This document shows positions 24,238-49,415 of a DNA stretch of 64,000 nt, one piece after another. The stretch is from the NCBI GenBank assembly GCA_963663635.2, contig CAXXMY010000017.1, positions 91,461-155,460 of the forward strand, given 5' to 3'. The notes beneath the pieces were generated by a model. The model was not told where the DNA came from. It made no database searches and worked only from the letters and a program-made list of their open reading frames with translations. A program made the translations under genes and the position numbers. How positions within the stretch are numbered: the stretch's first letter is position 1; each line of letters opens with the position of its first letter. Source of the stretch: Acidimicrobiales bacterium (GTDB lineage Bacteria; Actinomycetota; Acidimicrobiia; Acidimicrobiales; Poriferisodalaceae).

Positions 24238-25527
24238 GTGCAGGCTCGGTCACCGCAGAGTCCGATGGTGCCTGTGCTCGTTGCCGGGAGCATCGTCACG
24301 GCTGCAACGCTCGGCGTGCGGGCCACGATGGGACTGTTCCCCGACGAGATCGACGCCACGCTGGGCGTTGGCATCGACACCGTCGGGCTGACCGTGGCCT
24401 TGCAGAATCTGATCTGGGGTCTGGGCCAGCCCATCGCCGGGGCCATCGCGGATCGGTTCGGCGCTGTTCGGGTCCTGTTCGTCGGAGCGGTGACGTACGC
24501 CGCCGGCTTGCTGGTCATGGCGACAGCTTCTGGCCCCGCGGGCCTGTATCCCGGCGGCGGGCTCGTGACGGGTCTCGGCATGTCTGCGGCCTCGTTTGCC
24601 GTCGTGCTTGCCGCAATGGGAAAGCTGATGGACCCGCAGCGACGCACGCTCGCGCTCGGGATCGCGACAGCCTTCGGATCGTTCGGCCATTTCCTGCTGG
24701 TGCCCCTCACCGGTGTGCTGATCGGCTCGCTCGGCTGGCGCACCGCGCTGGCGGTGTTGGCGATGGTGGCCGTCTCGATCGTTGCGGTGATACGACCCCT
24801 GCGCACTCCGCCCTCCGGCCCTCACAGCGGGTCCGACGCGGACACCATCGAGGCTGCACGCCACGACGAGCCGCTGCGAGCGGTGCTTGCGCGTGCGGCG
24901 CGTCACCGTGACTACGTGATACTCAACGCGGCCTTCTTCGTCTGCGGCTTCCATGTCACCTTCATCGGCGTCCACCTGCCCAAGTCCCTCACCGACGCGG
25001 GCCACAGCGCCCGGATCGCCACGCTGTCCTGGGCGTTGATCGGCCTGTTCAACATCGTGGGCGCCTTCGCTGCGGGCGTCCTCGGATCCCGAATCGACAA
25101 GAGCCGCCTGCTCAGCATCATCTATGTCTGCCGGGCCGCGGCGTTCGTGGGCTTGCTCTTGCTGCCGGCGACGCCGCTGGTGGCTCTGGGCTTCGGCGCT
25201 GTGGTCGGTCTCGTCTGGTTGGCCAGTGTCCCGCTGACCTCCGGGATCGTTCTGGGCCAATTCGGCGTGCGCAACGCCGGGACGCTGTTCGGGTTCGTCT
25301 TTCTGTGCCACCAGTTTGGGGCCTTCGCCGGATCGTACGGGGCTGGATTGCTGCGCGAGGCGACAGGCTCATACGACCTGTGGTGGTGGCTCGCCGCGCT
25401 GTTGGGAGTGGTGGCCGCGGTACTGCATTTGAGCATCTCCGACCAACTCGCGCCCCGCCCGGACGATCCTGCTCCCAAGCACGCCGGTGCCCGAATGCGA
25501 CTCCCCGGAGCTACTGCAACCGGGTGA
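24238..25527 (+). CDS. MFS transporter
   Basis: Twelve hydrophobic segments and an MFS-like loop motif (GAIADRFGAVRV). Start is GTG 24238 or ATG 24265. Confidence 0.75.
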   Translation: MQARSPQSPMVPVLVAGSIVTAATLGVRATMGLFPDEIDATLGVGIDTVGLTVALQNLIWGLGQPIAGAIADRFGAVRVLFVGAVTYAAGLLVMATASGPAGLYPGGGLVTGLGMSAASFAVVLAAMGKLMDPQRRTLALGIATAFGSFGHFLLVPLTGVLIGSLGWRTALAVLAMVAVSIVAVIRPLRTPPSGPHSGSDADTIEAARHDEPLRAVLARAARHRDYVILNAAFFVCGFHVTFIGVHLPKSLTDAGHSARIATLSWALIGLFNIVGAFAAGVLGSRIDKSRLLSIIYVCRAAAFVGLLLLPATPLVALGFGAVVGLVWLASVPLTSGIVLGQFGVRNAGTLFGFVFLCHQFGAFAGSYGAGLLREATGSYDLWWWLAALLGVVAAVLHLSISDQLAPRPDDPAPKHAGARMRLPGATATG

Positions 25528-26362
25528 CTGCGGCGTCTCGCCAGGCGATCGTGGACTCGATGGCGTTGAACGTGAACACATGCAGGCCAATGATGTTGAG
25601 CCGGTCGGCATTTGCTGCGAGCTTGTTGAGCAATGTGCTGGGGTCATAGCCGCCGGGCCGCATCAGCCGCGCGACAGCTCCACGGTTCTTGCGCAGGTAC
25701 CTCAGGGAGGCACCGATACCGAGGCGGGTGCCGATCCGCACCAGACGCGCTGGTTCGACTGCGCCAGGGATTCCGAGATGGACCGGCAGCACGAAGCCGC
25801 TGCGGCGCTCAGCAGCCAGCCAGTCCACAATCGAGCGCCCGTGGAAGCACATCTGCGTGGATGCGTGCCCTTCGATGCCTGCACTTCGCAGGATCGACTG
25901 CTTCGTGCGGAGTGCGCCATGCAGCACATCGTCTGCGATGAGGGCATGGCCTTCGGGGTAGGCGGTAACACCGATATGGGTCAACGAGTGATCGACATCG
26001 ACGAGCGATTCAAGCAGCGCGACAGCGCCGTCGAAAGGACCGGCGGGCGAGGTCACGTCGCCTCCGACAAGAAAGATCTCATTCAGGCCCAACTCAGCGA
26101 CGCGCCCCAACAGCTCTTGCAGATGCCCCCGGCTGCGGACCATGCGGGCCGCGATGTGGGGGACCGGGCGATGCCCGAGTGTGCACAGCTGCGCTGTCAG
26201 GTCCAGCGTGTCCTCGAGCGTCTTGGACGCTGAAGCTGTCACGGACACCGGAGCGGCCGCAGGCAAGTGCTGAAGCTGATCAGCGAGGTTCTTGAGAGGG
26301 ATCAGCTCCCACTGGGCTTCACTGAGGAGCCGACGCAGCGCCTCCCTGGTGCTTGCGGACAT
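25511..26362 (-). CDS. metF: 5,10-methylenetetrahydrofolate reductase
   Basis: MTHFR blocks (WELIPLK, ..HIAAR, FLVGGD, TAYPEGH, QMCF, GIPG) are conserved. The start is uncertain (ATG 26362 or ATG 26461). Confidence 0.8.
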   Translation of the reverse strand: MSASTREALRRLLSEAQWELIPLKNLADQLQHLPAAAPVSVTASASKTLEDTLDLTAQLCTLGHRPVPHIAARMVRSRGHLQELLGRVAELGLNEIFLVGGDVTSPAGPFDGAVALLESLVDVDHSLTHIGVTAYPEGHALIADDVLHGALRTKQSILRSAGIEGHASTQMCFHGRSIVDWLAAERRSGFVLPVHLGIPGAVEPARLVRIGTRLGIGASLRYLRKNRGAVARLMRPGGYDPSTLLNKLAANADRLNIIGLHVFTFNAIESTIAWRDAAVTRLQ

Positions 26363-26476
26363 CGAGGATCCGCGCCGTGAGGGCCGCACGAGTACGGCCG
26401 CGGAAACGCTCTTGGCCGCGGCAGCGCGACAGGCGCGCAAGGGGGTGAACATCAAAGCCATCGGGGCGGTTCTCGC

Positions 26477-28186
26477 TCAGCTCAGGCCGACGATCTCACC
26501 GTCGGCGTCGAGGTCGATGTGGCGGGCGGCCGGGTCACGACCGAGGCCGGGCATGGTGCGCATGTCGCCGCAGATCGGGTAGACGAAGCCGGCACCTACC
26601 GACGCACGCACCTCGCGAACCGGCAGCGTCCAGCCCGTCGGCGCACCCTTCAGCGAGGCGTCGGACGAGATGGACAGGTGCGTCTTCGCGATGCACACGG
26701 GCAAGTTTCCGAAGCCGTTGCGTTCGTAGCTGTCGAGCTCACGGTTCGCCCGGGCGGTGTAGCTCACGTCGGCGGCGCCGTACACATTCGTCGCGACGGC
26801 GTGGATCTTGTCGCGCAGCGGAATGTCATCGGGATACAGCACAGCAAAGTCCGTCGGCTCCTCTGCGGCTTCGGCCACTGCGGTGGCGAGCTCGGCTGCG
26901 CCTGCTCCGCCGTCCGCAAAATGGGTGCATCGGGCCGAGCGGGCGCCGTACTCGGCTGCGATCTCGGCGATGGCGTCCAGATCGACCCCGTGATCGCCGG
27001 GAAATTCGTTGATGGCCACAACGGGTGACACGCCATGCATCCGCACGTTCTCGAGCTGCTTGCGCAGGTTGTCGCCGCCGGCGTGGACTTCGTCGGGATT
27101 GGCCTCGAGCAGGGCCGGGGGCAAGGGTCGTCCCGCGACGATTCGATGGTTGCCCGAATGCGCCTTGAGGCCCCGCACGGTTGCCACGATGACGGCCGCG
27201 TCTGGAGAGACGCCCGAATAGCGGCACTTGATGTTGAAGAAGCGCTCGGCGCCCATGTCGGCGCCGAATCCGGCCTCGGTCAGCAGGAAATCGGACGTGT
27301 GGATGCCGATGCGATCGGCCACGATCGAGGAGTTTCCCGTGGCGATGTTTCCGAAGGGCCCCGTGTGCACGAGCGCCGGCGTGCCTTCGAGGGTCTGCAT
27401 CAGGTTCGGCTTGATGGCCTCTCGCAGCAGCACTGCCATCGAGCCGGCAGCACCGATGTCCTCGGCGGTGACCGGTTCGCCCGAGGGGGTGTAGCCCAGC
27501 ACGATGCGGCCGAGGCGGGCGCGCAGATCCTCCATCGAGGTGCACAGCGCCAGGGTCGCCATCACTTCCGACGCAGCGGTGATATCGAAACCCGACTCGC
27601 GGGGGATGCCGTCGAGCCGGCCGCCCAGACCGATCGTGATATTGCGCAGCGCTCGGTCGTTGACGTCGAGCACTCGTCGCCAGGTGATGTTGTGGATGTC
27701 CAGGCTGGGTTCGCTGCCGTGATACAGGTGCGCATCCAGCATTGCTGCACAGAGGTTGTGCGCGGCGGTCACGGCGTGCATGTCGCCGGTGAGGTGCAGG
27801 TTGAACAGGTCCATCGGCACGACCTGGCTGTAACCGCCGCCGGCTGCGCCTCCCTTGATGCCGAACGTCGGACCCATCGACGGCTGGCGGATCGCGATGG
27901 TTGCGGTCCGGCCGATGTGGGCGAATGCCTGCCCCAGACCGACCGTGGTTGTCGTTTTTCCTTCGCCGAGCGGGGTCGGCGTGATGGCCGTCACAACCAC
28001 GTACCGGCCGCGCGGGCGATCAGCCATGGCCTCGATGGCTTCGAGACCGACCTTGGCCACACCGTGTCCGTACAGCTCCAAGAATTCCGACGGGATGCCC
28101 GCGTCATCGGCAATCTCGGTGAGCGGTCGAATTGTCGCCGCAGAGGCGATCTCCAGATCGCTCGGAAATCCACTTGCCGTGGTCAT
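26477..28186 (-). CDS. fhs: formate--tetrahydrofolate ligase
   Basis: SDLEIA N-terminus, P-loop TPLGEGKTTTTVGL, length about 570 aa. ATG 28186 is preceded by AAGGGG. Confidence 0.9.
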   Translation of the reverse strand: MTTASGFPSDLEIASAATIRPLTEIADDAGIPSEFLELYGHGVAKVGLEAIEAMADRPRGRYVVVTAITPTPLGEGKTTTTVGLGQAFAHIGRTATIAIRQPSMGPTFGIKGGAAGGGYSQVVPMDLFNLHLTGDMHAVTAAHNLCAAMLDAHLYHGSEPSLDIHNITWRRVLDVNDRALRNITIGLGGRLDGIPRESGFDITAASEVMATLALCTSMEDLRARLGRIVLGYTPSGEPVTAEDIGAAGSMAVLLREAIKPNLMQTLEGTPALVHTGPFGNIATGNSSIVADRIGIHTSDFLLTEAGFGADMGAERFFNIKCRYSGVSPDAAVIVATVRGLKAHSGNHRIVAGRPLPPALLEANPDEVHAGGDNLRKQLENVRMHGVSPVVAINEFPGDHGVDLDAIAEIAAEYGARSARCTHFADGGAGAAELATAVAEAAEEPTDFAVLYPDDIPLRDKIHAVATNVYGAADVSYTARANRELDSYERNGFGNLPVCIAKTHLSISSDASLKGAPTGWTLPVREVRASVGAGFVYPICGDMRTMPGLGRDPAARHIDLDADGEIVGLS

Positions 28187-28292
28187 ACTGCGCACCCCTT
28201 GTGCCACGCTTATCGATACGGCCGTGCAGCCGGATCGTGCCCCTTCAGCGTCGATTTGATCGTGTTCCAGCGTTACCGTAACGCGCTAGTCT

Positions 28293-28315
28293 GTTCCGCT
28301 GAGCGGAACTGTTCC
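28293..28315. promoter_or_regulatory. palindromic operator candidate in the fhs / dehydrogenase divergent promoter (site 1 of 3)
   Basis: gttccgctgagcggaac (a perfect 7-3-7 inverted repeat) overlaps ggaactgttcc (5-1-5). The reverse complement matches 33738-33760 at 21 of 23 positions. Confidence 0.6.
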
Positions 28316-28420
28316 ATCATACAGAACACGGGTGGCCTGATCGGTCACCTTTGCATGCCGTACTCTGGCGGCGCCCAGAGGCGAATTTCGGTTGCATGCT
28401 TGTCTTTGGAGGGGGTTGGC

Positions 28421-30943
28421 ATGAGCGAGTTTCCTGAAAGGGCCGACTGTGTCGTCATCGGTGCCGGAATCGTTGGCAACTGCTTGGTCGGGCATCTCAG
28501 CGACCTGGGCTGGACTGACATCGTTCTGCTCGACAAGGGACCGCTGCCCAACCCGGGCGGCTCCACTGGCCATGCCTCGAACTTCATCTTCCCGATCGAT
28601 CACTCCAAGGAGATCGTCGATCTCACCGTCGAGAGCCAGCGGCAGTACGAGGCGCTCGGCCTGCAGAACACCTGCGGGGGGCTCGAGGTGGCCCGTTCGC
28701 CTGAACGTCTCGAGGAGTTCCGCCGGCGCATGACCTCGGCCAAGTGCTGGGGGATCGAGTCAGAGCTGCTCACCGTCGACGAGGTCGTCGAGATGGTGCC
28801 CTTCATCGACGCCAGCGTCATTCTGGGCGGGTTCTATACGCCCAGCGTGTCCGCAGTGGACTCCCTGGAAACGGGCACGCAAATGCGCAAGCGGGCCCAG
28901 GACGCTGGGCACCTGTCGGTGCATGCGAATACCGAGGTGCTCGACATCGAGACCGCCCCGGGGCCCAACGGGCCGCGGGTTGCCGCCGTGGTGACCGACA
29001 AGGGGCGCATCGAGTGCTCCACGGTGGCCATCGCCTGCGGCGTGTGGAGCTCCAAGCTCGCGGAGATGGCGGGGGCGACGATCCCGTTGACGCCCGCCGT
29101 GCACCAGATGGTCGATGTCGGCCCCTTCGACGTCCTGGTGGAGACCAATCAAGAGCTGGCCTATCCGATCGTTCGGGACATGGACACGTTCTGCTATGAG
29201 CGTCAATCCGCCGGTTCCATGGAAGTGGGCAGCTACGCCCACCGGCCGATCCTGCACCGCGTCACCGACATACCGTCCAACGAGGAAGCGGCGCTGAGCC
29301 CCACGGAGCTGCCGTTCACGCCCGACGACTTCGACGAACAGCTCGAACAGGCCATCGAGCTGATGGAGTTCCTGGGCGACGGCGAGATCAAATACGCCAT
29401 TAACGGTCTGCTGTCGCTCACGCCCGACGCAGCCCCGGTGCTCGGACCCACTGTCGAGGTGGAGAACCTGTGGTCAGTAGCTGCGGTCTGGGTCAAGGAG
29501 GGCCCGGGCGTCGGCCGCCTGGTCGCCGAGTGGATGACCTACGGCTACCCGCGACTGACCGACCCGCACGGCTCAGATGTGACGAGGTTCTACCGCCAGG
29601 ACCGCAACGTTCACCACATCGAAGCCCGGGCCGACGAGCACTTCAACAAGACGTACGGCATCGTGCACCCCCGTGAGCAATGGGCGAGCCGACGCAATGT
29701 GACGTGCGGTCCCGCCAAGGCTCGCACCGACGACCTCGGCGCGTTCTATTTCGAGGCTGGCGGCTGGGAACGGCCGCACTGGTATGAGTCCAACGCAGAT
29801 CTCGTGGAGCGCTACGGGATCTCGGGACGCACGCACGAATGGGACGCCCGCTGGTGGAGCCCTATCACCGAGGCCGAACACCTGCACCTGCGTGAGCACT
29901 GCGGGCTGGTGGACGTCTCGCCGTTTCAGGTCTTCGAGGTGTCCGGCCCCGGGGTCGTGCCCTACATCGAGCACATGGTGGTCAACAAGTGCGACCTGCC
30001 CGTCGGCCGTTCGATCTACACGCCCGTGCTCACGCCCGATGGCGGATTTCGATCCGACCTCACCATCGTCCGGCTCGCGCAGGACCGGTTCCGCATCGCC
30101 ACCGGTGCGTTCGACGGCGGCCGTGACGAATACTGGTTCCGGCACAACCTGCCCGGCGACGGCGTGGCGTTCGAGAACCGCACCGAGGCGCTCGCTACCT
30201 ATGGCGTGTGGGGACCCAACGCAGTCGCGTTGCTGCAAACCCTGACCGAGACGGATCTCTCACAGGAAGCGTTCGGTTACGGGCAGGTCCGCAACGTCCT
30301 GCTGTCGGGCATCCCGACGCAGATGCTGCGCATCTCCTACGTCGGCGACGCCGGATTCGAGATCTATTGCGCCACCAGCGCCGGCCTGGCGCTGTGGGAC
30401 GCAATCTCGCAGGCCGGGCGAGACTTCGAGCTGCGCCCCGTCGGCGCCGGGGTGTATGGCACCACCGGCCGTCTCGAGAAGGGCTACCGGCTCATGGGCG
30501 CCGAGCTCGAGAGCGAGTACAACCCGGTAGAGGCCGGCCTCGCACGGCCCAAGGTGAAGGCGGCCGACTTCATCGGCAAGGATGCCTACCTTGCCGCACG
30601 CGAGGCAGATCAAGCCGCGGTGCTCGTCATGCTGGCGTTCGAGAGCCTGCAGTGCGCCGATGGCTACGACCGGTTCCCGATGGGAGCAGGCAACGAGCCG
30701 GTGCTGACGCCCGCCGGAGATCGGATCACCGATTCCCACGGGCGAGTCAGCAAGTTGACCACGGCGGGCAACGCTCCGTCCGTTGGCGCCTATCTCGCGA
30801 TGGCCTACCTGCCCACTGAGCTGGCCACGGTCGGCACCGAGCTCGCAGTGATGTACCAGAACGAGCTCTATCCGGTGACAGTTGGCGCCACGGGAGCGAA
30901 CCTGGCACTGTTCGATCCGGCTGACAGCCGGATAAAGGCCTGA
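28421..30943 (+). CDS. dimethylglycine/sarcosine dehydrogenase-like FAD oxidoreductase fused to a GcvT-type folate-binding aminomethyltransferase domain
   Basis: N-terminal VVIGAGIVGN FAD motif. C-terminal GcvT-like region (SPFQVFEVSGP, YTPVLTPDGG, GDAGFEIY). 840 aa. ATG 28421 is preceded by GGAGGGGG. The first 462 codons of the 1302-aa ORF in the track are antisense to fhs. Confidence 0.85.
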   Translation: MSEFPERADCVVIGAGIVGNCLVGHLSDLGWTDIVLLDKGPLPNPGGSTGHASNFIFPIDHSKEIVDLTVESQRQYEALGLQNTCGGLEVARSPERLEEFRRRMTSAKCWGIESELLTVDEVVEMVPFIDASVILGGFYTPSVSAVDSLETGTQMRKRAQDAGHLSVHANTEVLDIETAPGPNGPRVAAVVTDKGRIECSTVAIACGVWSSKLAEMAGATIPLTPAVHQMVDVGPFDVLVETNQELAYPIVRDMDTFCYERQSAGSMEVGSYAHRPILHRVTDIPSNEEAALSPTELPFTPDDFDEQLEQAIELMEFLGDGEIKYAINGLLSLTPDAAPVLGPTVEVENLWSVAAVWVKEGPGVGRLVAEWMTYGYPRLTDPHGSDVTRFYRQDRNVHHIEARADEHFNKTYGIVHPREQWASRRNVTCGPAKARTDDLGAFYFEAGGWERPHWYESNADLVERYGISGRTHEWDARWWSPITEAEHLHLREHCGLVDVSPFQVFEVSGPGVVPYIEHMVVNKCDLPVGRSIYTPVLTPDGGFRSDLTIVRLAQDRFRIATGAFDGGRDEYWFRHNLPGDGVAFENRTEALATYGVWGPNAVALLQTLTETDLSQEAFGYGQVRNVLLSGIPTQMLRISYVGDAGFEIYCATSAGLALWDAISQAGRDFELRPVGAGVYGTTGRLEKGYRLMGAELESEYNPVEAGLARPKVKAADFIGKDAYLAAREADQAAVLVMLAFESLQCADGYDRFPMGAGNEPVLTPAGDRITDSHGRVSKLTTAGNAPSVGAYLAMAYLPTELATVGTELAVMYQNELYPVTVGATGANLALFDPADSRIKA

Positions 30944-30957: not shown

Positions 30958-31761
30958 ATGCGCATCCTGGTCTGCGTGAAGCGAGTCCCGTCGCCGGGAT
31001 CGCGCATCAACGTGACCGACGACGGCCAGCAGGTGGACTCCGCGCATCTCGGCTTCACCACAAGCCCGCACGAGGAATGCGCTGTCGAGGAAGCGGTGCA
31101 GCTCATCGAGCGTGTCACCGCCAGCGACAGCGACAACAACGAAGACCACGCAGTTGTGGTGCTCACGCTCGGGCCCGAAGCCGCTGGCGAGCAGCTGCGC
31201 TACGCGGCGAGCGTCGGGGCCACGGGCTTCGCGCTCGTCGAAGCGGAAGGCGGCCTGGATTGGGACCCCCAACGGACCGCGACTGCGATCACTGGCGCGG
31301 TGCGGTCACTGGAAGCCGATGAAGGCCCGTTCGACCTCATCCTGTTCGGCAATGAATCGGCCGACGGCGGCAACTTCCAGGTCGGCATCAGGGTGGCGCA
31401 TGCGCTCGGTCGTCCCATCGTGAACGGCATCAAGGGCATCGACTCGCGGCCCGACGGCGGCTTTGTCGCACGGCGAGAGACCGACGCCGGCTACGAGGTC
31501 TACGAGCTCGATGCTCCGTGCGCCCTCGGCGTCAAGGAAGGCATCAACCTGCCCCGGTATCCGACGATGAAGGGGCGGCTGGCATCGCGCAAAGCCCACA
31601 TCGCGACGCTCGACAGCGCAAGCGCGGCTGCTGCGGGCGGACAGACGCGTGTGCGGCTCCACCGACCGCCCGAACGCGCGAGCACGACCGTTGTGCTGGG
31701 CGACAGCGCAGCAGCGGCCCCCGCCGTTGTGGACCTGCTTGATGAGCTCGGTGTGCTGTGA
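30958..31761 (+). CDS. etfB: electron transfer flavoprotein subunit beta
   Basis: MRILVCVKRVP start and overall EtfB pattern. Confidence 0.9.
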   Translation: MRILVCVKRVPSPGSRINVTDDGQQVDSAHLGFTTSPHEECAVEEAVQLIERVTASDSDNNEDHAVVVLTLGPEAAGEQLRYAASVGATGFALVEAEGGLDWDPQRTATAITGAVRSLEADEGPFDLILFGNESADGGNFQVGIRVAHALGRPIVNGIKGIDSRPDGGFVARRETDAGYEVYELDAPCALGVKEGINLPRYPTMKGRLASRKAHIATLDSASAAAAGGQTRVRLHRPPERASTTVVLGDSAAAAPAVVDLLDELGVL

Positions 31762-33662: not shown

Positions 33663-33737
33663 CGCCTCAAAGCTAGCCCTTGCGCGGTCGGCATTCGACA
33701 GAAGTGCTCTCGGTTGGTGTCTCGCGTGCCGTATTGT

Positions 33738-37755: not shown

Positions 37756-37765
37756 GCACACCCCG

Positions 37766-40950: not shown

Positions 40951-40987
40951 ATGCCGTGGCGCTCAAACGCCCCTGTCGGGCGATGGG

Positions 40988-43040
40988 TCAGGGCTCTTCG
41001 TGTATGCGCACGGTGTAGCTGCCGTCTTGCTCGGCGAGCACGGCCACCCGGTAACCCAGCACGCTGAGCGAATCCCCCGTCTGAAGCAGCGGGTACCCCT
41101 CAATCGTGCGGTCCTCGTCGCCTGCAACCTTGAGCGGTAGCGAGTGCAGGCCTGAATCGACGGTGTACACGAGGACGCGAACGGCACCCACTGGTCCCGT
41201 TCGACGTTGCGTCGTGCCTCGACGACGATCACCCTGCGATTGTCGACCGACACCGCCGCCATGAGCGTGTCGTTGCCCTGCAGCGCCTCGGGGTCAATAT
41301 GGACCAAGGCATCGGGCTCTTCGATGCAGCTGTAGATCGACAGACCCATGATCCCGAAGTCGGACGCGACGAGCACCGTGCCGTCCTTGCGCTCGGGCCG
41401 TTCGCTGTGGCCATCGCCGTCCAGGTCGGCCAAGCCGAAGATGTGCAACAGCTCGAGTGCTGCGGCCCAGCCATTGGCGGTGATCTGGCGAGTCTCAGTG
41501 TGGTGCGTCACGTTCATGCGCATCGTGGGCACGGTCCGACCGCCGACGTCAATGTTGCCGGTCGCAGTGGCGATCGAGAATTGATCGCCCGGGAAGATCG
41601 TCATGACCGCGTCAATGTCGGAGAAATCGAGCTTGCCGGCGCTCGCGTCTTCGAGGTATTCCTCCATGTAGGGGACGCTCTCGGCGACTTCGGCATGGGT
41701 GCTGTGGCGAGCTTGCGTGTTGGGGAAATCGACGAAGAGCACCGCCAGCCGAACGGTGCCCACAGCAGAGGGCGACCACACGGGCGAGTAGCCCCAGGAG
41801 TTCGTCGCTGTGATCTGTGTGAGGCTCTTGCCCGAGGCATCCATCGTCATGAGGTACGTGCCGTGATCGCCGTGATCGCCCGGGCCGCTGTCGTCGAAGA
41901 ATCGCCTGAATGCGATCGTTGAGCCATCGGGTGACCAGGACACACCCCGGTCGTGAAAGGTGCCGTCGGTCAGTTGCTTCTTGCCGCTGCCATCGATGTT
42001 GATGACCCAAATGCTGGCACGCCAATCTCCATCGCCGTGCTGCTCGAATGCGTAGGCGATCTTGTTTCCGTCGGGTGACCACGCGAGGTAGAAAGCCGAT
42101 TGGTCTGGCAGCAGTTGAGTGGGCGGGTCGGTCGCCGCACCGCCGCATGAGCCGGCGGGAAGCGCTGCTGGCGCTGTGCCATCGTCGGTGTTGCCGCTGC
42201 TGTCGCCATCGCCTGTGTCGACCGTGGTGATCGGCCTGCCGAGATACTCGGACAGTGCCGCGTCGGAAACGGCTGCGTTGCCGCCGAACACCGTGAGCTC
42301 GATGCCGTCGCTGCCGACGGCAGTTCGTGCCGAATCCATGAACCCAGCCGTCTCGACGGGTATGGCCTGCGGATCGACCAGCACCAACGGTGCACACAGA
42401 CGTGCAAGCAACGGACCGGCACTGAACGAGTAGAACGGCACGCGCGCCCTGGCCAAGCCGATGTGCTTCCGGCCGAAGCAGTCGCCGGCCGAAGCGTCGC
42501 CGTAGCGACCTTGCACTAGCTCGGCAGCCTTGATGGCTGTGTCGTAACGGGTGGCTCCGGCCAGCCGGGTCACGGTCACGCCGAGCCCGGTGAGCGAGTC
42601 CTCGACCCCCGCGCTTAACGCAGCAGTGCCGCCCATCAGCACCACATGGTCCACAGATGCGCTGCTGAGATAGGAGACCACCTCGGGATGCAGTCGGTCT
42701 CGCGGGGTCAGCAGCACCGGATGGCTGCCGCGCGCTGAGAATGGTCCTGCTACGAGCGCGTCGGCGAAGACCTCTCCGCTGGCCACAACAGCAGTCCGGC
42801 CCAGCCCGCTCATGACGCCGACGTCGCCCGGGTCGCTGGACCTGCTGCGCAGGAATCGCCCGAGCTTGCGCGCAACAGCTGCACCGGTGGCGTACCGATC
42901 GGCCCCCGAAACCCGTTCGGACGAAATGCCGAGCGACGACAGTGCGTCGGTAACGCTGTCGCTGACGCGGGCATCTGGATCTGAATCAGGCGCCTGGGTG
43001 TCGATGACCAGCACGTTCGAGACCCCGGTGAGATTCCGCC
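40988..43040 (-). pseudogene. decayed surface-protein gene: starts mid-CWB2 repeat (no signal peptide), then PD40 blades, an M6 (InhA)-like metallopeptidase-like domain and a C-terminal beta-rich domain; frameshift near 41185-41200
   Basis: The coding-like sequence begins immediately after the mttB-like stop, within a repeat. The C-terminal part continues in ORF 40988-41191 in another frame. The HExxH position reads LELLH. Confidence 0.6.
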
Positions 43041-43051
43041 CAGTGTGAGAG

Positions 43052-44593
43052 CTACACGAGAGCGTCGGGTTCCTCGGCCTTGCGGCGGGCGATGTAGTCG
43101 CGGAGCTCCTCATCGATGGCGTCATCGATCGGCGGTGCTTCGTAGTCCGCCAGCATTCGCTTCCACACCACATTGGCGCGTTGGGCCGCGTCGAGCGAGC
43201 CGTCGTCGGACCAACGCTCGAAGCTGTTGTTGTCTGCGATGGAGGACTGATAGAAGGCCGACTCGAAGTTCTCCAACGTGTGCGCGTGTCCCAGGAAATG
43301 GTTGCCGTGAGGGTTCGTGAGGAACGCTTCGACGGCCTGCCCGTTGGGCGACATGTCGATGCCCTTGGCGTAGACCTCCATCATTCCGAGCTGGTCTGCG
43401 TCCATAATGAGCTTCTCGTAGCTCAGTGCCAGGCCACCCTCGAGCCATCCCGCTGCGTGCAGCACGAAGTTCACGCCCGCTGACATCGTGGGCAGCAGCG
43501 TGGATGCCGATTCGTACGCCGCCTGCGCATCGGGAGCTTTGGAGGACGTGAACTGCCCGCCGGAACGGAACGGCAGTCCGACGCGCCGCGCGAGCTCTGC
43601 CATGACGTAGATGGCCAAGCCCGCCTCGGGCGTGCCGAACGTCGGGGCTCCGGTCGCCATCGACATCGATGAGGCGAATGTTCCAAAGATCACCGGTGCG
43701 CCCGGGCGCACCAGCTGGCAGAACGCCATGCCCGACAGCGCCTCGGCCAGGCACTGTGCTGCCAGTGCAGCCACCGTGACCGGCGACATCGCCCCCGCCA
43801 AGATGAACGGCGAGATGACGCATGCCTGGTTGTGCCGTGCATAGACCTCAGCGGACTCCAGCATCGTCGCATCCCAGCGCAGCGGGGACGACGCATTGAT
43901 GAGGCTGGTGAGCACCGTGCGGTCGCCCAGATCACCACCGAACGCGATACGGCACAGCTCGACCGAATCCTCGGCTCGCTTCGCAGCGGTGACCGAGCCC
44001 ATGAGCGGCTTGTCGCTGTACCGCAGATGGGAATACACCATGTCGAGGTGGCGCTTGTTCACCGGCACATCCACCGGCTCGCACACGGTGCCGCCGCTGT
44101 GGTGCAGGTGGGGGAGCATCCACGTCAGCTTCACCACGTTCTCGAAGTCGGCCAGCGTGGCGTAGCGACGACCCTCGTCGAGGTCGGTCACGAACGGCGA
44201 TCCGTAGTTCGGCGCAAATACCGTCGCGTCGCCGCCGATCGGCACGGACCGCGCCGGGTTTCGGGCGTGCTGAATGTATGTGGAGGGCGCGTTTTCTTGG
44301 ACGATCTGCCGGCACATTCCGCGGGGAAATCGGACGAGCTCCCCATCGACATCGGCACCCGCGGCGCGCCACAGCTCCAACGCACGGGGGAATTCCTGAA
44401 AGGCGATGCCCACCTCGGACAGGATCGTCTCGGCATTCGCCTCGATCTGGGCCAGGCCGGCCTCGTCCAGCACACTGACCGGCGGCAGCCTGCGGGTCAG
44501 GTGCGTGTTGGTGACGGCGTCACTGGCCGCCCGCCTGGCCTGGCGGGCCGCCCTGCCGCCTTCTCGTCGTCGTGTCCGCTGGCTCATGTTCAC
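43052..44593 (-). CDS. MttB-superfamily methyltransferase, non-pyrrolysine type (quaternary amine:corrinoid methyltransferase candidate)
   Basis: Full-length uninterrupted ORF of 513 aa with MttB-family blocks (VLDEAGL..I...A..IL.E.G, GSPFV.D, GGTVCEP, SPLRWD, INFVLHAAGWLEGGL). No in-frame TAG. Start is GTG 44593 or ATG 44587. Confidence 0.8.
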   Translation of the reverse strand: MNMSQRTRRREGGRAARQARRAASDAVTNTHLTRRLPPVSVLDEAGLAQIEANAETILSEVGIAFQEFPRALELWRAAGADVDGELVRFPRGMCRQIVQENAPSTYIQHARNPARSVPIGGDATVFAPNYGSPFVTDLDEGRRYATLADFENVVKLTWMLPHLHHSGGTVCEPVDVPVNKRHLDMVYSHLRYSDKPLMGSVTAAKRAEDSVELCRIAFGGDLGDRTVLTSLINASSPLRWDATMLESAEVYARHNQACVISPFILAGAMSPVTVAALAAQCLAEALSGMAFCQLVRPGAPVIFGTFASSMSMATGAPTFGTPEAGLAIYVMAELARRVGLPFRSGGQFTSSKAPDAQAAYESASTLLPTMSAGVNFVLHAAGWLEGGLALSYEKLIMDADQLGMMEVYAKGIDMSPNGQAVEAFLTNPHGNHFLGHAHTLENFESAFYQSSIADNNSFERWSDDGSLDAAQRANVVWKRMLADYEAPPIDDAIDEELRDYIARRKAEEPDALV

Positions 44594-44686: not shown

Positions 44687-46804
44687 TCACCGGCTCCGTC
44701 GGTGCCGGGAACGTCGTCGGGCGCTCGTGTCGGAGGGCGTGCGCGCATCAGCGCCCACCGGAACTGTGCGATCAGGCAGCTCGATTGCAGTGCCAAGCAG
44801 CGGATTCGACGCTGTCGCATGCGGGAGCGCCATCGCGGACACGAACAGCTCCTGAAATCGCGGCTCGGTTGCTGTCTCGATCTTGCGGATTTCTCTGACG
44901 ACGGACTCCATCTCAGCGCGCTGAGCGCCCGAGAGCAGCGCACGCACGGCACCTGTTCCGGCCGCATTGCCCACCGAGCGCACCGCTTCGGGCTTGCAGT
45001 CACCGATCAGCCCCAACACCATGGCGCGCACAGGGTCGATGTGGGCACCGAACGCTCCCGCGAGCTGGACCTGCTGGGGAGACCCGATGCTGGCGCGCTC
45101 GCACAACAGATCGATGCCCGCACGCAACGCCGCTTTGGCCAGCTGCACTGCCCTGACGTCGTTCTGGGTGACCGTGATGGTCGGACCGGCGCTGTGGGGG
45201 GGCGGCTCGTAGACCACGTAAGAAAACGTACGACCGTCGGCGATCACCCGCGCCGAGCGCTCGTCGGACGCCGGCGGCGCAGCGATGACTCCCTGCGCCG
45301 AGAGCACTCCGGCGAGGAACATCTCCGCGATCACTTCGATGATGCCCGAGCCGCAGAGGCCGGTGACGCCGGCGGCCGCGGAGCGCGAGCCGACAGCCAC
45401 CACGCGTTCCACCGCATCGTCGAAGCCGGGCTCGTCGGACCACAGCTCACAGCCAATCACCCGAAAGCGCGGCGCCCATGTCTGCGGGTCGATGCGCACG
45501 CGCTCGATTGCACCAGGGGTGGCTCGCAGCCCGCAGCTGATTTGCGCTCCCTCGAACGCGGGCCCTGTCGGACTCGACGCAGCCCACAAGCCCGCCGAGC
45601 TGCCCAGCACGATCTCGGCATTGGTGCCGACGTCGACCAGCAACGTGATTTCGTCGCTTCGATGAGGGCCGCCGGCGAGCACCGCGGCGGCGGTGTCGGC
45701 GCCCACGTGCCCCGCAATGGCGGGCCCGACATACACGCGTGCGGCCGGGCACGGAAGCCCGAGGTGGGGACCTTCGACTTCCACCGGGGCATCGGTGGCG
45801 AGCGTGAACGGCGCCTGCCCCAGCGGAGTGGGATCGATGCCCAAGGCGATGTGGATCATGATCGGGTTCCCGACCAGGACCACCTCGACCACCGTGCCGG
45901 GATCAGCCCCGGCATCGGTGCACAGTTCGACGACGAGCTCGGCGAGTGCATTACGCACGAGCGCGGTGAGCTCCGCATCGCCGCCGGGGTTCATCATCAC
46001 GTAGGACACCCGGCTCATCAGGTCCTCGCCGAGCCGGATCTGAGGATTCATGCGTCCCGCCGAGGTCAGCACCTCGCCGGTATGCAGATCGACGAGGTGG
46101 CCGGCCAGCGTGGTGGATCCGATGTCGACGGCGATGCCCAGCGCCGCGGTGACAACTCCCGGCCATACCGCCGCCAGTAAGCCGGTGCGGTTCAGGGGTC
46201 CTGCGCCGCTCCAGCGCACAGCGGCAGTGACGAGACCATCGCCCGCTGCGACGGCGCTATGGAGTCCTCCCAGCACCGACGGCAGCGTGCCGCTGACTCC
46301 GACGTTCCATTCGGCGCGCAGCTGCTCGATGACGATCTGGGCGAGGCCACGGCGCTCGTCCAGCGTCGGCGCCGCAATGTTGACCGCGTGCAGCGTGGTC
46401 ATCGGGTCCAGCACGATGTCGCCGACATCGATCGACTTGCGCACCACTGGACCGTGCAGCTGACTTTGCGGGGGAACGTCAAGCACGGCATCGGAGCGAA
46501 TGGCGGCTTGGCAGCCCAAACGTGCCGTCGACTCGAGCGGTCGGCGGCCCGCATAGGCAGCCTCGGTCTCATTCGAACCGCTGAGGGCGGCAGCGGTGGC
46601 TTCGATTGCCCACTTGGGGAACGATCCCAGCGACGGCACAACTTGGCACCGGCCGCAGATGCCGCGGCCGCCGCAGACGCTGTCGAGGTCAACGCCGAGC
46701 ATCCGAGCCGCGTCGAGCACAGTGGTGCCTTGCGTCACGGCACCCGAACGCCCCGACGGCGTGAACACGACGCGTGCTTCCCGAGCGTTCGATCCCGGCG
46801 TCAT
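44687..46804 (-). CDS. RACo-type reductive activator of corrinoid enzymes (N-terminal plant-type 2Fe-2S ferredoxin plus ASKHA ATPase/DUF4445)
   Basis: C-x4-C-x2-C ferredoxin motif (CGGRGICGRCQV ... LGCQA), then an ASKHA-like region (DIGSTT, VDVGTNAEI, GPAFEG). Start is ATG 46804 or ATG 46864. Confidence 0.8.
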   Translation of the reverse strand: MTPGSNAREARVVFTPSGRSGAVTQGTTVLDAARMLGVDLDSVCGGRGICGRCQVVPSLGSFPKWAIEATAAALSGSNETEAAYAGRRPLESTARLGCQAAIRSDAVLDVPPQSQLHGPVVRKSIDVGDIVLDPMTTLHAVNIAAPTLDERRGLAQIVIEQLRAEWNVGVSGTLPSVLGGLHSAVAAGDGLVTAAVRWSGAGPLNRTGLLAAVWPGVVTAALGIAVDIGSTTLAGHLVDLHTGEVLTSAGRMNPQIRLGEDLMSRVSYVMMNPGGDAELTALVRNALAELVVELCTDAGADPGTVVEVVLVGNPIMIHIALGIDPTPLGQAPFTLATDAPVEVEGPHLGLPCPAARVYVGPAIAGHVGADTAAAVLAGGPHRSDEITLLVDVGTNAEIVLGSSAGLWAASSPTGPAFEGAQISCGLRATPGAIERVRIDPQTWAPRFRVIGCELWSDEPGFDDAVERVVAVGSRSAAAGVTGLCGSGIIEVIAEMFLAGVLSAQGVIAAPPASDERSARVIADGRTFSYVVYEPPPHSAGPTITVTQNDVRAVQLAKAALRAGIDLLCERASIGSPQQVQLAGAFGAHIDPVRAMVLGLIGDCKPEAVRSVGNAAGTGAVRALLSGAQRAEMESVVREIRKIETATEPRFQELFVSAMALPHATASNPLLGTAIELPDRTVPVGADARTPSDTSARRRSRHRRSR

Positions 46805-46817
46805 CGCCAGGGCCTCG

Positions 46818-47753
46818 CTATCCAGTGCGCGCCTGGCGACCGCCGCGACGTCGCGGCCGCTCACCCGGTGCAGTGCCTCCCGACGCTGTGCCGCCGGCTC
46901 TTTGAGTGTTCCTGATCCTGTACTCCGCGATCCACGCGGCGCAGTTCTGATCGTTGCCCGCGAGAACGTCGCCGGCCATCACCGCGGCCTTTACTTCGGC
47001 GTGGAGCGGGTTCATAATGGCCGATGTCATTCCGGCTCCGATGGCCATAGCCAGGTACGTGCCGGTAATGATGTTGCGATTCGGCAAGCCGAAGCTGACG
47101 TTGGATGCACCGCACGTGGTGTTGACGCCCAGCTCATCGCGCAGGCGACGCACAAGGTGAAAGACCTGACGACCTGCTGTTGCCATTGCGCCGATTGGCA
47201 TCACCAACGGATCCACCACGACGTCGTGTGCGGGAATGCCGTAATCCGAAGCAGCATTGACGATGCGGCGTGCCACCTCGAAACGGACATCGGGATCCAT
47301 GCTGATGCCAGTCTCGTCATTGGAGATGGCCACGACTGCGGCACCGGCGCGCGCCACCAGCGGCAGCACGCGTTCCATCACCTCTGCCTCGCCGGTCACA
47401 GAGTTGATGAGCGGCTTGCCGACGTAGGCATCCACGCCGGACTCGAGGGCCTCGATCACGGACGAGTCGATGCAGAGGGGCACGTCGGTCACCGACTGCA
47501 CCAGCTTCACCGCCGACGCCAGCAGAGCGGGCTCGTCAGCGAGCGGCACACCCGCATTCACGTCAAGCATGTGAGCGCCGGCAGCAACTTGTGCGAGGGC
47601 ATCGGCCTCCACCCGGCTGAAGTCGCCCGCACGCATTTCTTCGGCAAGCAGCTTGCGACCCGTCGGGTTGATGCGTTCGCCGATCATCACGAACGGCCGG
47701 TCGAAGCCGATGACGACGTCACGGGTTGCAGAACTGATGACGGTGTCGGTCAT
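46818..47753 (-). CDS. methyltetrahydrofolate:corrinoid methyltransferase (pterin-binding, MtrH/AcsE/MetH-like)
   Basis: IGERINPTG, DVNAG, INSV and GASNVSFGLP pterin-binding-domain blocks. Its ATG overlaps the upstream stop (ATGA at 47750-47753). Confidence 0.85.
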   Translation of the reverse strand: MTDTVISSATRDVVIGFDRPFVMIGERINPTGRKLLAEEMRAGDFSRVEADALAQVAAGAHMLDVNAGVPLADEPALLASAVKLVQSVTDVPLCIDSSVIEALESGVDAYVGKPLINSVTGEAEVMERVLPLVARAGAAVVAISNDETGISMDPDVRFEVARRIVNAASDYGIPAHDVVVDPLVMPIGAMATAGRQVFHLVRRLRDELGVNTTCGASNVSFGLPNRNIITGTYLAMAIGAGMTSAIMNPLHAEVKAAVMAGDVLAGNDQNCAAWIAEYRIRNTQRAGGTASGGTAPGERPRRRGGRQARTG

Positions 47754-48472
47754 GCGAGCATCTCGGCGCGCTCGCGCCGCGACGGCGCCGCGACGCTCAC
47801 CATGGTGTCGCGAAGCTCGCCGTAGCCCGTCTCGACGATCACCAGCGGAAGGCCGAGGCGCTCGGCTCCCGCTCGTGCACATGCCTCGACGCGGACTCGT
47901 TCAGTCTCGTCGAGCGTCTGGGTCAGCAGGACGACTCGCTCGTAGTTGCCGAAGTACATCTCTGCGAGCTCGGGGTGCGCCTCGATGCCCAAGCCCTTCC
48001 ACACGAGCAGGTCAAAGTGACGCGCGAGGTAGTCGGTCAGGTAGAAGGTTGCGGGCTCGGCATCGTGCATTGCGGCGAAGCGGCCTGCGCCTGCGTAGAA
48101 CTCATAGCAGTGCGCTCCCGGCATCATCGACATCCGCGGTCCTTCGCCGGCTGCGTGCGCGGCCTCGAACTCTCGGCAGAGGTCCTCGAGCGATCCAGCG
48201 GTTCCGCAGTCGGCATACCCCAGCAGGATCTGTGCGTACGACTTGCCCTGCTTGCGGAGTCGGGCCAGCCGCTCGCGAACCGCGCCGGCAATCAACGCCG
48301 GGCGATTGTGCAGCTTGGCGGGCAGACATTCCACGTCGACGTTGACGAGACCGTGGTGGCGCACCACCGCTTGCATCTCGTTGACCAACGCGCCGCACCC
48401 AAGGACCAGAGTGCGCTCGACGTCCCCTTCGGCGTAGGGCATCGTCGCCAGCGGAGCGCTCATTGAAGTCAC
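47750..48472 (-). CDS. DUF1638 domain protein (recurrent neighbour of corrinoid methyltransferase genes; function unknown)
   Basis: LGCGAL...LHNRP...LGYADCGT pattern. Embedded in the operon with 1-4 nt gene junctions. Confidence 0.7.
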   Translation of the reverse strand: MTSMSAPLATMPYAEGDVERTLVLGCGALVNEMQAVVRHHGLVNVDVECLPAKLHNRPALIAGAVRERLARLRKQGKSYAQILLGYADCGTAGSLEDLCREFEAAHAAGEGPRMSMMPGAHCYEFYAGAGRFAAMHDAEPATFYLTDYLARHFDLLVWKGLGIEAHPELAEMYFGNYERVVLLTQTLDETERVRVEACARAGAERLGLPLVIVETGYGELRDTMVSVAAPSRRERAEMLA

Positions 48473-48473: not shown

Positions 48474-49226
48474 TCAGGTTGCAGCGGCGCGGCGCGCCCG
48501 GATCAGATCGGTGGCGGTCTCCGAGGCGACTGCAGCGTCGCGGCAGTACGCATCCGCGCCGACTGCTTCGCCGAACTCCTGGTTCAACGGCGCCCCGCCC
48601 ACAATCACCAAATAGTCGTCACGCAAGCCCTTCTCGATGAGGGTGTCGACCACCACTTTCATGTAGGGCATCGTCGTAGTGAGCAGCGCCGACATGCCCA
48701 AGATGTCGGGTCGGTGCTCGTCGAGGGCTGCGAGGAACTGGTCGATGTCGGTATTGATGCCCAGGTCCACGACTTCGAAGCCGGCTCCTTCGAGCATCAT
48801 CCCGACGAGGTTCTTGCCGATGTCGTGGATATCGCCCTTGACGGTTCCGATGACGATCTTTCCGATGGGCTCCGCTCCGGTCTCGGCAAGCAGCGGACGC
48901 AGAATCGCCATGCCTGCCTTCATCGCGTTCGCCGCGAGAAGCACTTCGGGCACGAAGAGGATCCCGTCCCGGAAGTCGATCCCGACGATGCGCATGGCCT
49001 CAACGAGTGCCTCGTTGAGCACCTTGTCAGCCCCCCAGCCGCGGCCCAGCAGCAAATTGGTGCCCTCCACGATTTCGGGTCCGAGACCGTCGTAGAGATC
49101 ATCGTGCATCTGGGCAATGAGATCGTCGTCGTCGAGTTGAGAGAGATCGATCTCCTCGTCGACGTCGGCATCGGTTGTGCCGAGTGTTGACGTGTCGGCC
49201 ACGCCCCGTCCCCTCGTCATCGCCAT
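48474..49226 (-). CDS. corrinoid (cobalamin-binding) protein, MtgC/MtbC-like
   Basis: B12-binding cap helix region plus the DxHxxG motif (GDIHDIGKN) and the SALLTTT / GGAPL blocks. ATG 49226 is preferred; the longer ORF would run through the operator motif. Confidence 0.85.
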   Translation of the reverse strand: MAMTRGRGVADTSTLGTTDADVDEEIDLSQLDDDDLIAQMHDDLYDGLGPEIVEGTNLLLGRGWGADKVLNEALVEAMRIVGIDFRDGILFVPEVLLAANAMKAGMAILRPLLAETGAEPIGKIVIGTVKGDIHDIGKNLVGMMLEGAGFEVVDLGINTDIDQFLAALDEHRPDILGMSALLTTTMPYMKVVVDTLIEKGLRDDYLVIVGGAPLNQEFGEAVGADAYCRDAAVASETATDLIRARRAAAT

Positions 49227-49278
49227 AGCGAAGTCAAGCCGATCTCGACCCAACCCGCCGTGAGAAACCAATTTTATG

Positions 49279-49300
49279 GTTCCGCATTGTGGAACTGTGC
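49279..49300. promoter_or_regulatory. operator candidate upstream of the corrinoid-protein operon (site 3 of 3)
   Basis: gttccgcattgtggaactgtgc. It shares attgtggaactgt with site 2, and the downstream gcgttacggta resembles cgttaccgtaacg next to site 1. Confidence 0.5.
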
Positions 49301-49415
49301 CGCACAACGGCACAAAGCGTTACGGTATCACGAACCTCGCTCAAACGGCGACATCCCGAAGCAGCCCATTGCGCCCACGCCGGACGGGCTCAGCGCTTGC
49401 GCAACGAGGCGATCT

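Follow-up and report, generated by a model that had tools for sequence, protein, structure and literature searches.

The window analysed here is the whole of a 64,000-nucleotide stretch of the forward strand of contig CAXXMY010000017.1 (assembly GCA_963663635.2, positions 91,461 to 155,460), assigned to an Acidimicrobiales bacterium of the Poriferisodalaceae. Between positions 25511 and 49313 it carries, in three blocks, genes for a corrinoid-dependent methyltransferase system, an enzyme related to dimethylglycine dehydrogenase (DMGDH) and dimethylglycine oxidase (DMGO), folate-linked one-carbon (C1) metabolism and a formate dehydrogenase (FDH). We consider it likely that this interval is one co-regulated module for the catabolism of glycine betaine in an aerobic, sponge-associated member of the Acidimicrobiia. 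Genes were called by third-position GC, the window having about 66% G+C, and the called genes were annotated with Pfam and NCBIfam. Every gene listed in a preliminary description of the locus was recovered at about the coordinates given there, and the profile searches that it proposed gave matches for each family (MttB, B12-binding, Pterin_bind, RACo, DUF1638, DAO with GCV_T, ETF, FTHFS and MTHFR). The pathway genes and the regulator gene are the following.

43052-44587, minus strand: non-pyrrolysine methyltransferase of the MttB superfamily, MtgB-like, 511 amino acids (Pfam MTTB PF06253, 732 bits)
44687-46864, minus strand: RACo/RamA-type reductive activase of the corrinoid protein (Pfam Fer2, RACo_linker, Raco_middle, RACo_C_ter)
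46818-47753, minus strand: methylcorrinoid:tetrahydrofolate methyltransferase, MtgD/MtgA-like (Pfam Pterin_bind)
47750-48472, minus strand: DUF1638 protein, linked to corrinoid reactivation in published systems (Pfam DUF1638, 79 bits)
48474-49226, minus strand: MtgC-like corrinoid (B12-binding) protein (Pfam B12-binding_2 and B12-binding)
28421-30943, plus strand: DMGDH/DMGO-family flavoenzyme (Pfam DAO, FAO_M, GCV_T and GCV_T_C)
30958-31761, plus strand: EtfB, beta subunit of electron transfer flavoprotein (ETF) (Pfam ETF)
31758-32759, plus strand: EtfA, alpha subunit of ETF (Pfam ETF and ETF_alpha)
25511-26461, minus strand: divergent methylenetetrahydrofolate reductase (MTHFR)-like protein, "MetF" (Pfam MTHFR, 26.3 bits at a cut-off of 24)
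26477-28207, minus strand: formate-tetrahydrofolate ligase, Fhs (Pfam FTHFS, 806 bits; NF010030, 778 bits, above its cut-off of 652)
33868-35855, plus strand: FDH catalytic molybdopterin subunit without N-terminal Fe-S domains (Pfam Molybdopterin and Molydop_binding)
35827-37755, plus strand: NuoE/NuoF-type fusion, the NAD(H)/FMN diaphorase subunit of FDH (Pfam 2Fe-2S_thioredx, Complex1_51K and NADH_4Fe-4S)
37742-38710, plus strand: FDH Fe-S subunit, equivalent to the FdsA N-terminus (Pfam 2Fe-2S, two 4Fe-4S and Molybdop_Fe4S4)
32907-33662, minus strand: IclR-family regulator (Pfam HTH_IclR and IclR_C), divergent from the FDH genes

Two sets of related loci, cited below by L numbers where they have to be told apart, were compared with the window: 80 loci from genomes, anchored on MttB and read with the neighbours within 10 kb, and 80 loci from metagenomes, anchored on the DMGDH-like protein. 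When species-representative genomes were scanned, the nearest relatives of the window MttB were found in metagenome-assembled genomes of Acidimicrobiales (88% identity). A large protein search returned proteins labelled Candidatus Poriferisodalis sp. with 95-96% identity and one metagenome protein with 99%; an exact-sequence lookup of the window MttB gave no match, the nearest cluster being 99% identical. Candidatus Poriferisodalis is a sponge-associated genus of the Acidimicrobiia, phylum Actinomycetota.

The five genes of the mtg operon are tightly packed on the minus strand from 49226 down to 43052 in the order MtgC, DUF1638, pterin-binding methyltransferase, RACo/RamA and MttB. The MttB protein covers positions 1-499 of the 500 of the PF06253 TIM-barrel profile. 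Its open reading frame is continuous, with no in-frame UAG, and the protein is therefore without pyrrolysine, as the preliminary description had said. Matches in the PDB were 4YYC (E 2e-196), MtgB (2QNE/9YCE, about 1e-113) and the pyrrolysine-containing MttB (6e-32). The protein is 42% identical to D. hafniense MtgB, compared to 21-22% for MtcB and MtyB, and in an approximate neighbour-joining tree, for which the MtcB and MtyB sequences were machine-read from a supplement, its orthogroup branched with D. hafniense MtgB, far from MtcB and MtyB. The S. meliloti orthologue is about 60% identical and, at 525 amino acids, equal in length to the 4YYC chain.

The betaine-binding site of MtgB consists of Y97, R312, H348 and F356, according to a 2026 JBC study (PMC13080624). 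Y97 makes a cation-pi contact to the quaternary nitrogen, and R312 and H348 bind the carboxylate; R312 is also kept in MttB members that do not act on betaine and is hence not specific (PMC13080624). Three of these four residues are kept in the window MttB, Y97 within APNYGSPF, R312 within LPFRSGG and H348 within FVLHAAG, and the same three are kept in all 81 orthologues that are at least 60% identical. The Y97 equivalent is changed in MttB paralogues of the same loci. Four such paralogues (L022 19013-20524, L062 7849-9351, L069 17948-19459 and L073 1126-2610) keep R, H and a Trp that is described below, and have A, S or G in place of Y97; within the clade that occurs in aerobes, the residue at this position may be a marker of substrate specificity.

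The other products of the operon are those of a corrinoid methyl-transfer system. The lower-ligand motif DxHxxG is present in the MtgC-like protein as GDIHDIGKN, and the start of its gene was set at the ATG at 49226 because an operator, described below, covers 49279-49313. The MtgD-like protein scored 353 bits against NF005719, above the cut-off of 259, and the ATG of its gene at 47753 overlaps the DUF1638 stop (ATGA). A DUF1638 homologue of R. pomeroyi, SPO2162, is induced by betaine (PMC12478193). All four parts of a RACo/RamA activase, an N-terminal 2Fe-2S ferredoxin, a linker, a middle domain and an ASKHA C-terminal domain, were found; the protein falls below the cut-offs of the NCBIfam AcsV and RamA equivalog models, and the ATG at 46804 is an alternative candidate for its start.

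The DMGDH-like protein matched Arthrobacter dimethylglycine oxidase 1PJ5 over its full length (E 1e-128) and human and rat DMGDH at about 1e-82. It keeps the GAGIVG motif and the histidine that binds FAD covalently (His48 of DMGO). EtfB lies directly downstream of the DMGDH orthologue in 74 of the 80 metagenome loci, and EtfA is found in 65. Because EtfBA lies directly downstream, the enzyme is read as a dehydrogenase with ETF as electron acceptor, like that of mammals, and not as an O2-reducing oxidase; its substrate would be dimethylglycine. Fifteen contigs of the metagenome set (L121, L124, L130, L136, L139, L144, L145, L147, L150, L151 and L155-L159) show a variant arrangement, in which DMGDH, EtfB and EtfA are followed by a paralogue of MttB, which shares 38-40% identity with the window protein, and then by a second DAO/GcvT enzyme with 27% identity. 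This module lies at about 14.5-18.6 kb in loci with full flanks, where the DMGDH match starts at 10001, and it suggests a different methylated amine or successive demethylations.

The "MetF" of the preliminary description is indeed a relative of MTHFR at 25511-26461, as had been claimed; it is a divergent one, barely above the Pfam cut-off, and it reaches 40 bits against TIGR00676, whose cut-off is 294. Its best PDB match was 7XG9 (E 4e-33), the type 4, methyl-tetrahydrofolate-oxidising S6MTHFR, compared to about 3e-6 for the canonical MetF structures 1V93 and 3APT, so that in the PDB comparison it is closer to S6MTHFR than to reductive MetF. The gene recurs beside mtg clusters in relatives. 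The protein would oxidise methyl-tetrahydrofolate (methyl-THF) to methylene-THF, and Fhs, encoded next to it, would run from formyl-THF to formate and ATP. At L081 5437-7112 of S. meliloti, the MTHFR beside mtgD is encoded by two genes, one for MTHFR and one for an "MTHFR C-terminal domain-containing" protein, which resemble the MetF/MetV pair of acetogens.

The FDH is of the NAD type, as had been proposed, both by homology and by a domain complement equal to that of the FdsABG and Fdh1AB enzymes: it has a diaphorase, NuoG-like Fe-S domains, a Mo-bisPGD domain and the (Sec/Cys)-His motif. The molybdopterin subunit scored 522 bits with TIGR01591 and matched FdhF and FdsA in the PDB, the NuoE/NuoF fusion matched FdsB (6TG9_B, 6VW7_B) and the fused Fdh1B (7E5Z_B) among others, and the Fe-S subunit aligns with residues 17-303 of the alpha subunits of NAD-dependent FDHs (9WXB/6TG9). 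The alpha subunit is not a single polypeptide. It is split at the junction between the Fe4S4 and molybdopterin domains, and the halves are reversed: the catalytic half is encoded ahead of the diaphorase gene and the Fe-S half behind it. L008, L011, L013, L077 and about 20 metagenome loci share the split and this order (Mo, NuoEF, FeS). The catalytic gene has an in-frame TGA at 34146-34148, in the context CNRT-TGA-HAPSVVGL, which is kept in the four Acidimicrobiia orthologues of L008, L011, L013 and L077; homologues from Inquilinus have TGC (Cys) at this place. Neither the split nor the TGA appeared in the preliminary description. A hairpin lies shortly after the codon.

34161-34177, plus strand: SECIS-like hairpin with a 6-bp stem and a GGUCU loop, starting 12 nt past the TGA

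The hairpin is 100% paired in five of five orthologue sequences. Two stem substitutions in L077 affect different pairs and are one-sided and pair-preserving, and there is no double compensatory change. The Rfam SECIS_3 model gave a weak full-length match (16.4 bits, E 0.28), folding of the 69 nt past the TGA gave a non-significant z-score of 0.72, and RNAalifold returned a different, longer structure without covariation. No sel genes were found in the 64-kb window and no tRNA genes either, so that there is no tRNA-Sec within it. It is probable that the TGA encodes selenocysteine.

The three blocks are joined by a shared element. It consists of two 17-bp palindromes, GTKCC-N7-GGMAC, whose starts are 18 bp apart, and it occurs at the following positions.

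28293-28327, no strand assigned: operator 1, GTTCCGCTGAGCGGAAC-T-GTTCCATCATACAGAAC, between fhs and the DMGDH gene
33726-33760, no strand assigned: operator 2, GTGCCGTATTGTGGAAC-T-GTTCTGCTCAGCGGAAC, between iclR and the FDH genes
49279-49313, no strand assigned: operator 3, GTTCCGCATTGTGGAAC-T-GTGCCGCACAACGGCAC, upstream of mtgC

These are the only tandem operators in the 64 kb, one in the promoter region of each block; shuffled sequence, searched at a looser threshold, gave a mean of 0.43 tandem sites. The arrangement is also found in relatives. The tandem lies about 150 bp upstream of the DMGDH gene in 13 metagenome loci (L082, L085, L086, L088, L089, L091-L095, L099, L102 and L153). The gap between iclR and the FDH genes holds the tandem in L082, a perfect single site GTGCCACATnGTGGAAC in ten of the other loci just named (L086, L088, L089, L091-L095, L099 and L102), and a site in L008 and L013 as well, and the tandem stands upstream of mtgC in ten Acidimicrobiia loci (L001, L002, L004, L006, L008-L010, L012, L013 and L077). 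Shuffled versions of the relatives' loci gave 0.06 tandems per locus. Because the tandem operator is present in all three promoter regions and conserved in relatives, the three blocks form one predicted regulon, and the "promoter-linked blocks" of the preliminary description are thereby strengthened. This occurrence of one tandem operator in all three promoter regions is new here.

As would be expected of an IclR-family regulon, the palindromic operator is common to the promoters of the blocks and lies near a regulator gene. An IclR homologue is adjacent in many related loci, and a perfect-scoring site is found just upstream of iclR in L008 and L013. The IclR protein probably binds the tandem operator and controls the three blocks; we infer this link, and equally the effector. 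Two further elements were noticed beside the operators: a second perfect palindrome, GCGTTACCGTAACGC, at 28270-28284, 9 bp upstream of operator 1, which may be a second regulatory site, and a half-copy, GCGTTACGGTA, at 49316-49326, which adjoins operator 3. A search of the 64 kb with Rfam at gathering thresholds gave no match, and therefore no cobalamin, THF or glycine riboswitch controls the locus.

Conservation of gene order points in the same direction as the operator. The block of MttB, RACo, MtgD, DUF1638 and MtgC is present in about 50 of the 80 genome loci, with hosts among the Acidimicrobiia, Chloroflexia, Thermoleophilia, Gammaproteobacteria and Alphaproteobacteria; many of these loci have DMGDH-EtfBA, the MetF-like gene, Fhs or FDH no further than 10 kb away. 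Conversely, MttB is found within 10 kb in 31 of the 80 loci anchored on DMGDH. One contig, L082, is collinear with the window from the first transporter gene (MFS1) to the last (EamA), about 15 marine contigs share the order MetF-Fhs, DMGDH-EtfBA, IclR and FDH-MFS2, and three (L115, L118 and L125) have MetF-Fhs-MttB-RACo-MtgD-DUF1638-MtgC and IclR-DMGDH-EtfBA in one compact cluster. The S. meliloti cluster comprises genes for a cobalamin-binding protein, DUF1638, MTHFR, a methyl-THF:cobalamin methyltransferase, an ASKHA protein and bmt, near a betaine/proline ABC transporter, and has been proposed to encode a betaine demethylase (PMC12478193). The clustering goes beyond chance, because this set of genes is found grouped in dozens of independent genomes and contigs and because the blocks share a specific operator.

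The regulator and three transporters that had been listed earlier were also confirmed. The transporter genes are these.

24238-25527, plus strand: MFS1, transporter of the oxalate/formate-monocarboxylate group (Pfam MFS_1), at the left end of the locus
38732-40099, plus strand: MFS2, transporter (Pfam MFS_1), co-oriented downstream of FDH
40126-40950, plus strand: EamA-family (DMT) transporter (Pfam EamA)

The best NCBIfam models for MFS1 were those of L-lactate and oxalate/formate MFS proteins, all below cut-off, and the gene is kept upstream of MetF-Fhs in eight loci (L082, L086, L090, L092, L095 and L100-L102), so that a formate or organic-acid carrier is possible. The MFS1 and MetF-like genes are convergent, and their 3' ends overlap by 17 bp (25511-25527). 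MFS2, an uncharacterised transporter, is encoded at a distance of 0.2-6 kb from MttB in many loci of Acidimicrobiia (L003-L022), some of them devoid of FDH, and is the best candidate for an importer of betaine or another quaternary amine. EamA is kept beside MFS2 or MttB in L001-L003, L008, L013 and L082.

The remainder of the window bears on the host and on the limits of the locus. The PhyH gene that had been reported was confirmed at 12944-13873, a luciferase-like monooxygenase gene is also present, and both are consistent with an organism that uses O2. One gene unrelated to the pathway interrupts the interval and had been omitted from the earlier account.

40963 to about 43000, minus strand: CWB2/PD40 surface-protein gene, between EamA and MttB

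It is one of three genes with CWB2 cell-wall-binding repeats, which were noted at 16671-19724, 21646-23469 and, for the one named here, 40963-43173, and two of the three proteins also have PD40/beta-propeller repeats. The marine relatives L008 and L013 have no CWB2 homologue between EamA and MttB. The CWB2 proteins may be surface proteins of a symbiont.

Taken together, these genes suggest the following route for glycine betaine, which the cell would use for energy and probably also for C1 units and nitrogen. Betaine would enter the cell, probably through the MFS2 carrier. The MtgB-like MttB would convert it to dimethylglycine by transfer of one methyl group to Co(I) in the MtgC-like corrinoid protein, and the MtgD-like enzyme would pass this methyl from the corrinoid to tetrahydrofolate, while RACo/RamA and DUF1638 would serve to re-reduce corrinoid that has been inactivated by oxidation. 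The DMGDH/DMGO-like enzyme would then convert dimethylglycine to sarcosine, with the C1 unit released as methylene-THF by way of the GcvT domain and the electrons passed to EtfAB, and it may also take sarcosine, less well. Methyl-THF would be oxidised to methylene-THF by the MTHFR-like protein, a FolD encoded outside the window would give 10-formyl-THF, Fhs would release formate with formation of ATP, and the cytoplasmic, NAD-linked and probably selenocysteine-containing FDH would oxidise formate to CO2 and yield NADH. The IclR protein encoded in the middle of the locus would probably control all three blocks through the tandem operator. This is in essence the route of the preliminary description, which homology, pocket residues, synteny and the operator support as the most likely one. 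The same evidence makes glycine betaine the most likely substrate of the window MttB, as had been suggested, with the reservation that one pocket residue, F356, is replaced. The route is not complete from the locus alone, and the claim that a single locus oxidises every C1 unit to CO2 could not be upheld: as the preliminary description itself had observed, neither folD nor a sarcosine oxidase is among the called genes of the 64 kb.

Several observations weigh against the betaine route. Of the genes called across the whole window, none is folD and none codes for a dedicated sarcosine enzyme. The F356 equivalent is Gly in the window MttB and its orthologues, unlike in MtgB, and a Trp stands four residues upstream, at the position equivalent to I352 (HAAGWLEGGL), in the window MttB, in 4YYC and in all orthologues; as read from these residues, the pocket is not identical to that of the characterised MtgB. 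The tree was built without MtpB, MthB and the R. pomeroyi MtgB1/2, and the likeness of the window to the R. pomeroyi system is one of component set. The MtgC-like protein scored 206 bits against its best NCBIfam model, NF047996 (cut-off 370), and 165 bits against NF047995 (cut-off 310), a shortfall that fits the 2025 report of a phylogenetically distinct MtgC in aerobes (PMC12478193). Among the seven residues highlighted for type 4 MTHFR, the window protein keeps F269 alone: L48, P49, F215, C219, P268 and F269 correspond to S, A, I, L, T and F, and R78 to Met. The signature is thus absent, and membership of type 4 is not established by the residues seen. The transporters are MFS and EamA proteins, unlike the classical BCCT or ABC carriers of betaine.

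Some of these points would be expected if MttB took another amine, such as proline betaine, choline or phosphocholine, carnitine, gamma-butyrobetaine or an N-methyl compound of the sponge, with the DAO-GcvT enzyme acting on the matching tertiary or secondary amine. The exchange of F356 for G with W nearby, the tree without MtpB and MthB and the transporters unlike betaine carriers would all agree with such a substrate, and it is known that MttB paralogues have diversified in substrate (PMC8604678, PMC13080624) and reported that sponges are rich in carnitine (PMC9999580). We nevertheless regard this explanation as unlikely, since MtgB is the nearest of the characterised enzymes compared, at 42% identity against 21-22% for MtcB and MtyB, with Y97, R312 and H348 kept, and since the partner dehydrogenase is closest to dimethylglycine oxidase and dehydrogenase over its full length, including the FAD histidine. 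Furthermore, the S. meliloti orthologue adjoins bmt and a betaine/proline ABC transporter, and MttB and DMGDH are adjacent in several phyla.

Two other explanations concern the function of the locus as a whole, and we hold each of them to be very improbable. MtgC, MtgD, RACo and DUF1638 could mainly work as a cobalamin-dependent methionine synthase in split form, of the kind known from Phaeobacter inhibens, with the C1 genes as suppliers of methyl-THF; in R. pomeroyi, MtgC and MtgD have two functions, and methionine cannot be made without them (PMC12478193), and MtgD-type enzymes are reversible. Against this, the called genes of the window include no homocysteine-binding gene of the MtgE or Bhmt type, the operon ends in the MttB methyl-donor subunit, and the operator is common to the mtg operon and the catabolic set of DMGDH-ETF, Fhs-MetF and FDH. 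An exclusively anabolic split methionine synthase was rejected on the grounds of the missing mtgE and the catabolic operator partners, which leaves room for a dual catabolic and methionine-forming role of the mtg genes. Alternatively, the blocks could be neighbours by chance or belong to C1 housekeeping, with FDH, Fhs and MetF serving general formate and folate metabolism. The lack of folD in the window, the unrelated CWB2/PD40 gene that interrupts the locus and the fact that the blocks are not all adjacent in many genomes speak for this view. It does not explain why the tandem operator is found at three promoter regions only in 64 kb and kept in relatives, nor why the blocks recur together, in differing orders, in independent lineages; given the shared operator and the recurrent synteny, co-location by chance was rejected.

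A more far-reaching proposal can be made, which we offer as tentative and rather doubtful: in marine and sponge-associated Acidimicrobiia, the whole route of betaine methyl oxidation would be one IclR regulon, marked by the tandem GTKCC-N7-GGMAC, and would include a split, permuted selenocysteine FDH and a single-subunit, divergent MTHFR, both undescribed in the proteobacterial systems. Within this proposal, the ETF encoded in the same locus may accept the electrons that the MTHFR-like protein takes from methyl-THF. If true, this would answer the question of the physiological acceptor for MTHFRs that oxidise methyl-THF.

The preliminary description had called the architecture unusual for an aerobe, a view that the literature and the metagenomes do not bear out. 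In aerobic R. pomeroyi, MtgB1/2, MtgC, MtgD, RamA, DUF1638, MetF2 and the folate enzymes of C1 oxidation were shown to be induced by betaine (Mausz et al., PNAS, September 2025; PMC12478193), so that this combination in aerobes was published in 2025, and marine metagenomes frequently contain the full locus as well. According to the same study, the B12-dependent route, and not BHMT or GbcAB, is the main betaine demethylation in many aerobic Proteobacteria, marine Alpha-, Gamma- and Deltaproteobacteria often have the mtg genes beside those for the dimethylglycine and sarcosine steps, and Actinomycetota account for 5% of ocean mtgC reads (PMC12478193). No published description of a corrinoid betaine system in Acidimicrobiia or Poriferisodalis was found in literature searches.

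In the sea, and likewise inside animal hosts, glycine betaine is a major osmolyte and a nutrient currency. The known biochemistry is unchanged by the locus; the locus would extend the B12 route for betaine to the Acidimicrobiia, both to sponge symbionts and to the abundant pelagic lineages seen in TARA-type contigs, and its probable selenoprotein FDH would add a dependence on selenium, besides that on B12, to the nutrition of these bacteria. As an unusually complete and compact locus, it lends itself well as a template for annotation and heterologous reconstitution, and the predicted operator provides a testable handle on regulation in uncultured organisms.

The DMGDH-like enzyme shares its DAO and GcvT architecture, FAD histidine and dinucleotide-binding motif with A. 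globiformis DMGO (1PJ5) and mammalian DMGDH (5L46, 4PAB), and its gene differs from that of A. globiformis in adjoining EtfBA. The FDH has the cofactor-domain complement of FdsABG of Rhodobacter capsulatus and Cupriavidus necator and of Fdh1AB of Methylobacterium, and differs from them in the split and permuted alpha subunit and in the TGA at the active-site codon. With the ligM-metF-ligH genes of S. lignivorans SYK-6 (PMC11868366), where a THF-dependent demethylase gives methyl-THF, the window has in common an MTHFR relative adjoining a formyl-THF ligase gene, and among solved structures S6MTHFR of SYK-6 (7XG9) is the one nearest to the window MTHFR-like protein; the demethylase of the window is instead corrinoid-dependent and of the MttB type.

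The closest comparisons are with the MtgB systems themselves. D. hafniense MtgB, MtgC and MtgA (2QNE/9YCE; PMC13080624) likewise comprise a non-pyrrolysine MttB TIM-barrel, a cognate corrinoid protein and a partner that forms methyl-THF. The window differs in its aerobic host and in the pocket, with F356 changed to Gly and Trp at the I352 equivalent, and methyl-THF, which enters anaerobic metabolism in D. hafniense, would here be oxidised to CO2. The component set of the window equals that of the MtgBCD systems of R. pomeroyi and other marine and soil Proteobacteria, whose hosts are aerobic as well, and the member encoded in the S. meliloti MtgBCD cluster shares about 60% identity with the window MttB. 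Unlike these systems, the window belongs to a host of the Actinomycetota (Acidimicrobiia), has no mtgE in the locus, and has a single divergent MTHFR where S. meliloti has a MetF and MetV-like pair; and it gathers all modules, including Fhs and FDH, in one 24-kb stretch under one predicted operator.

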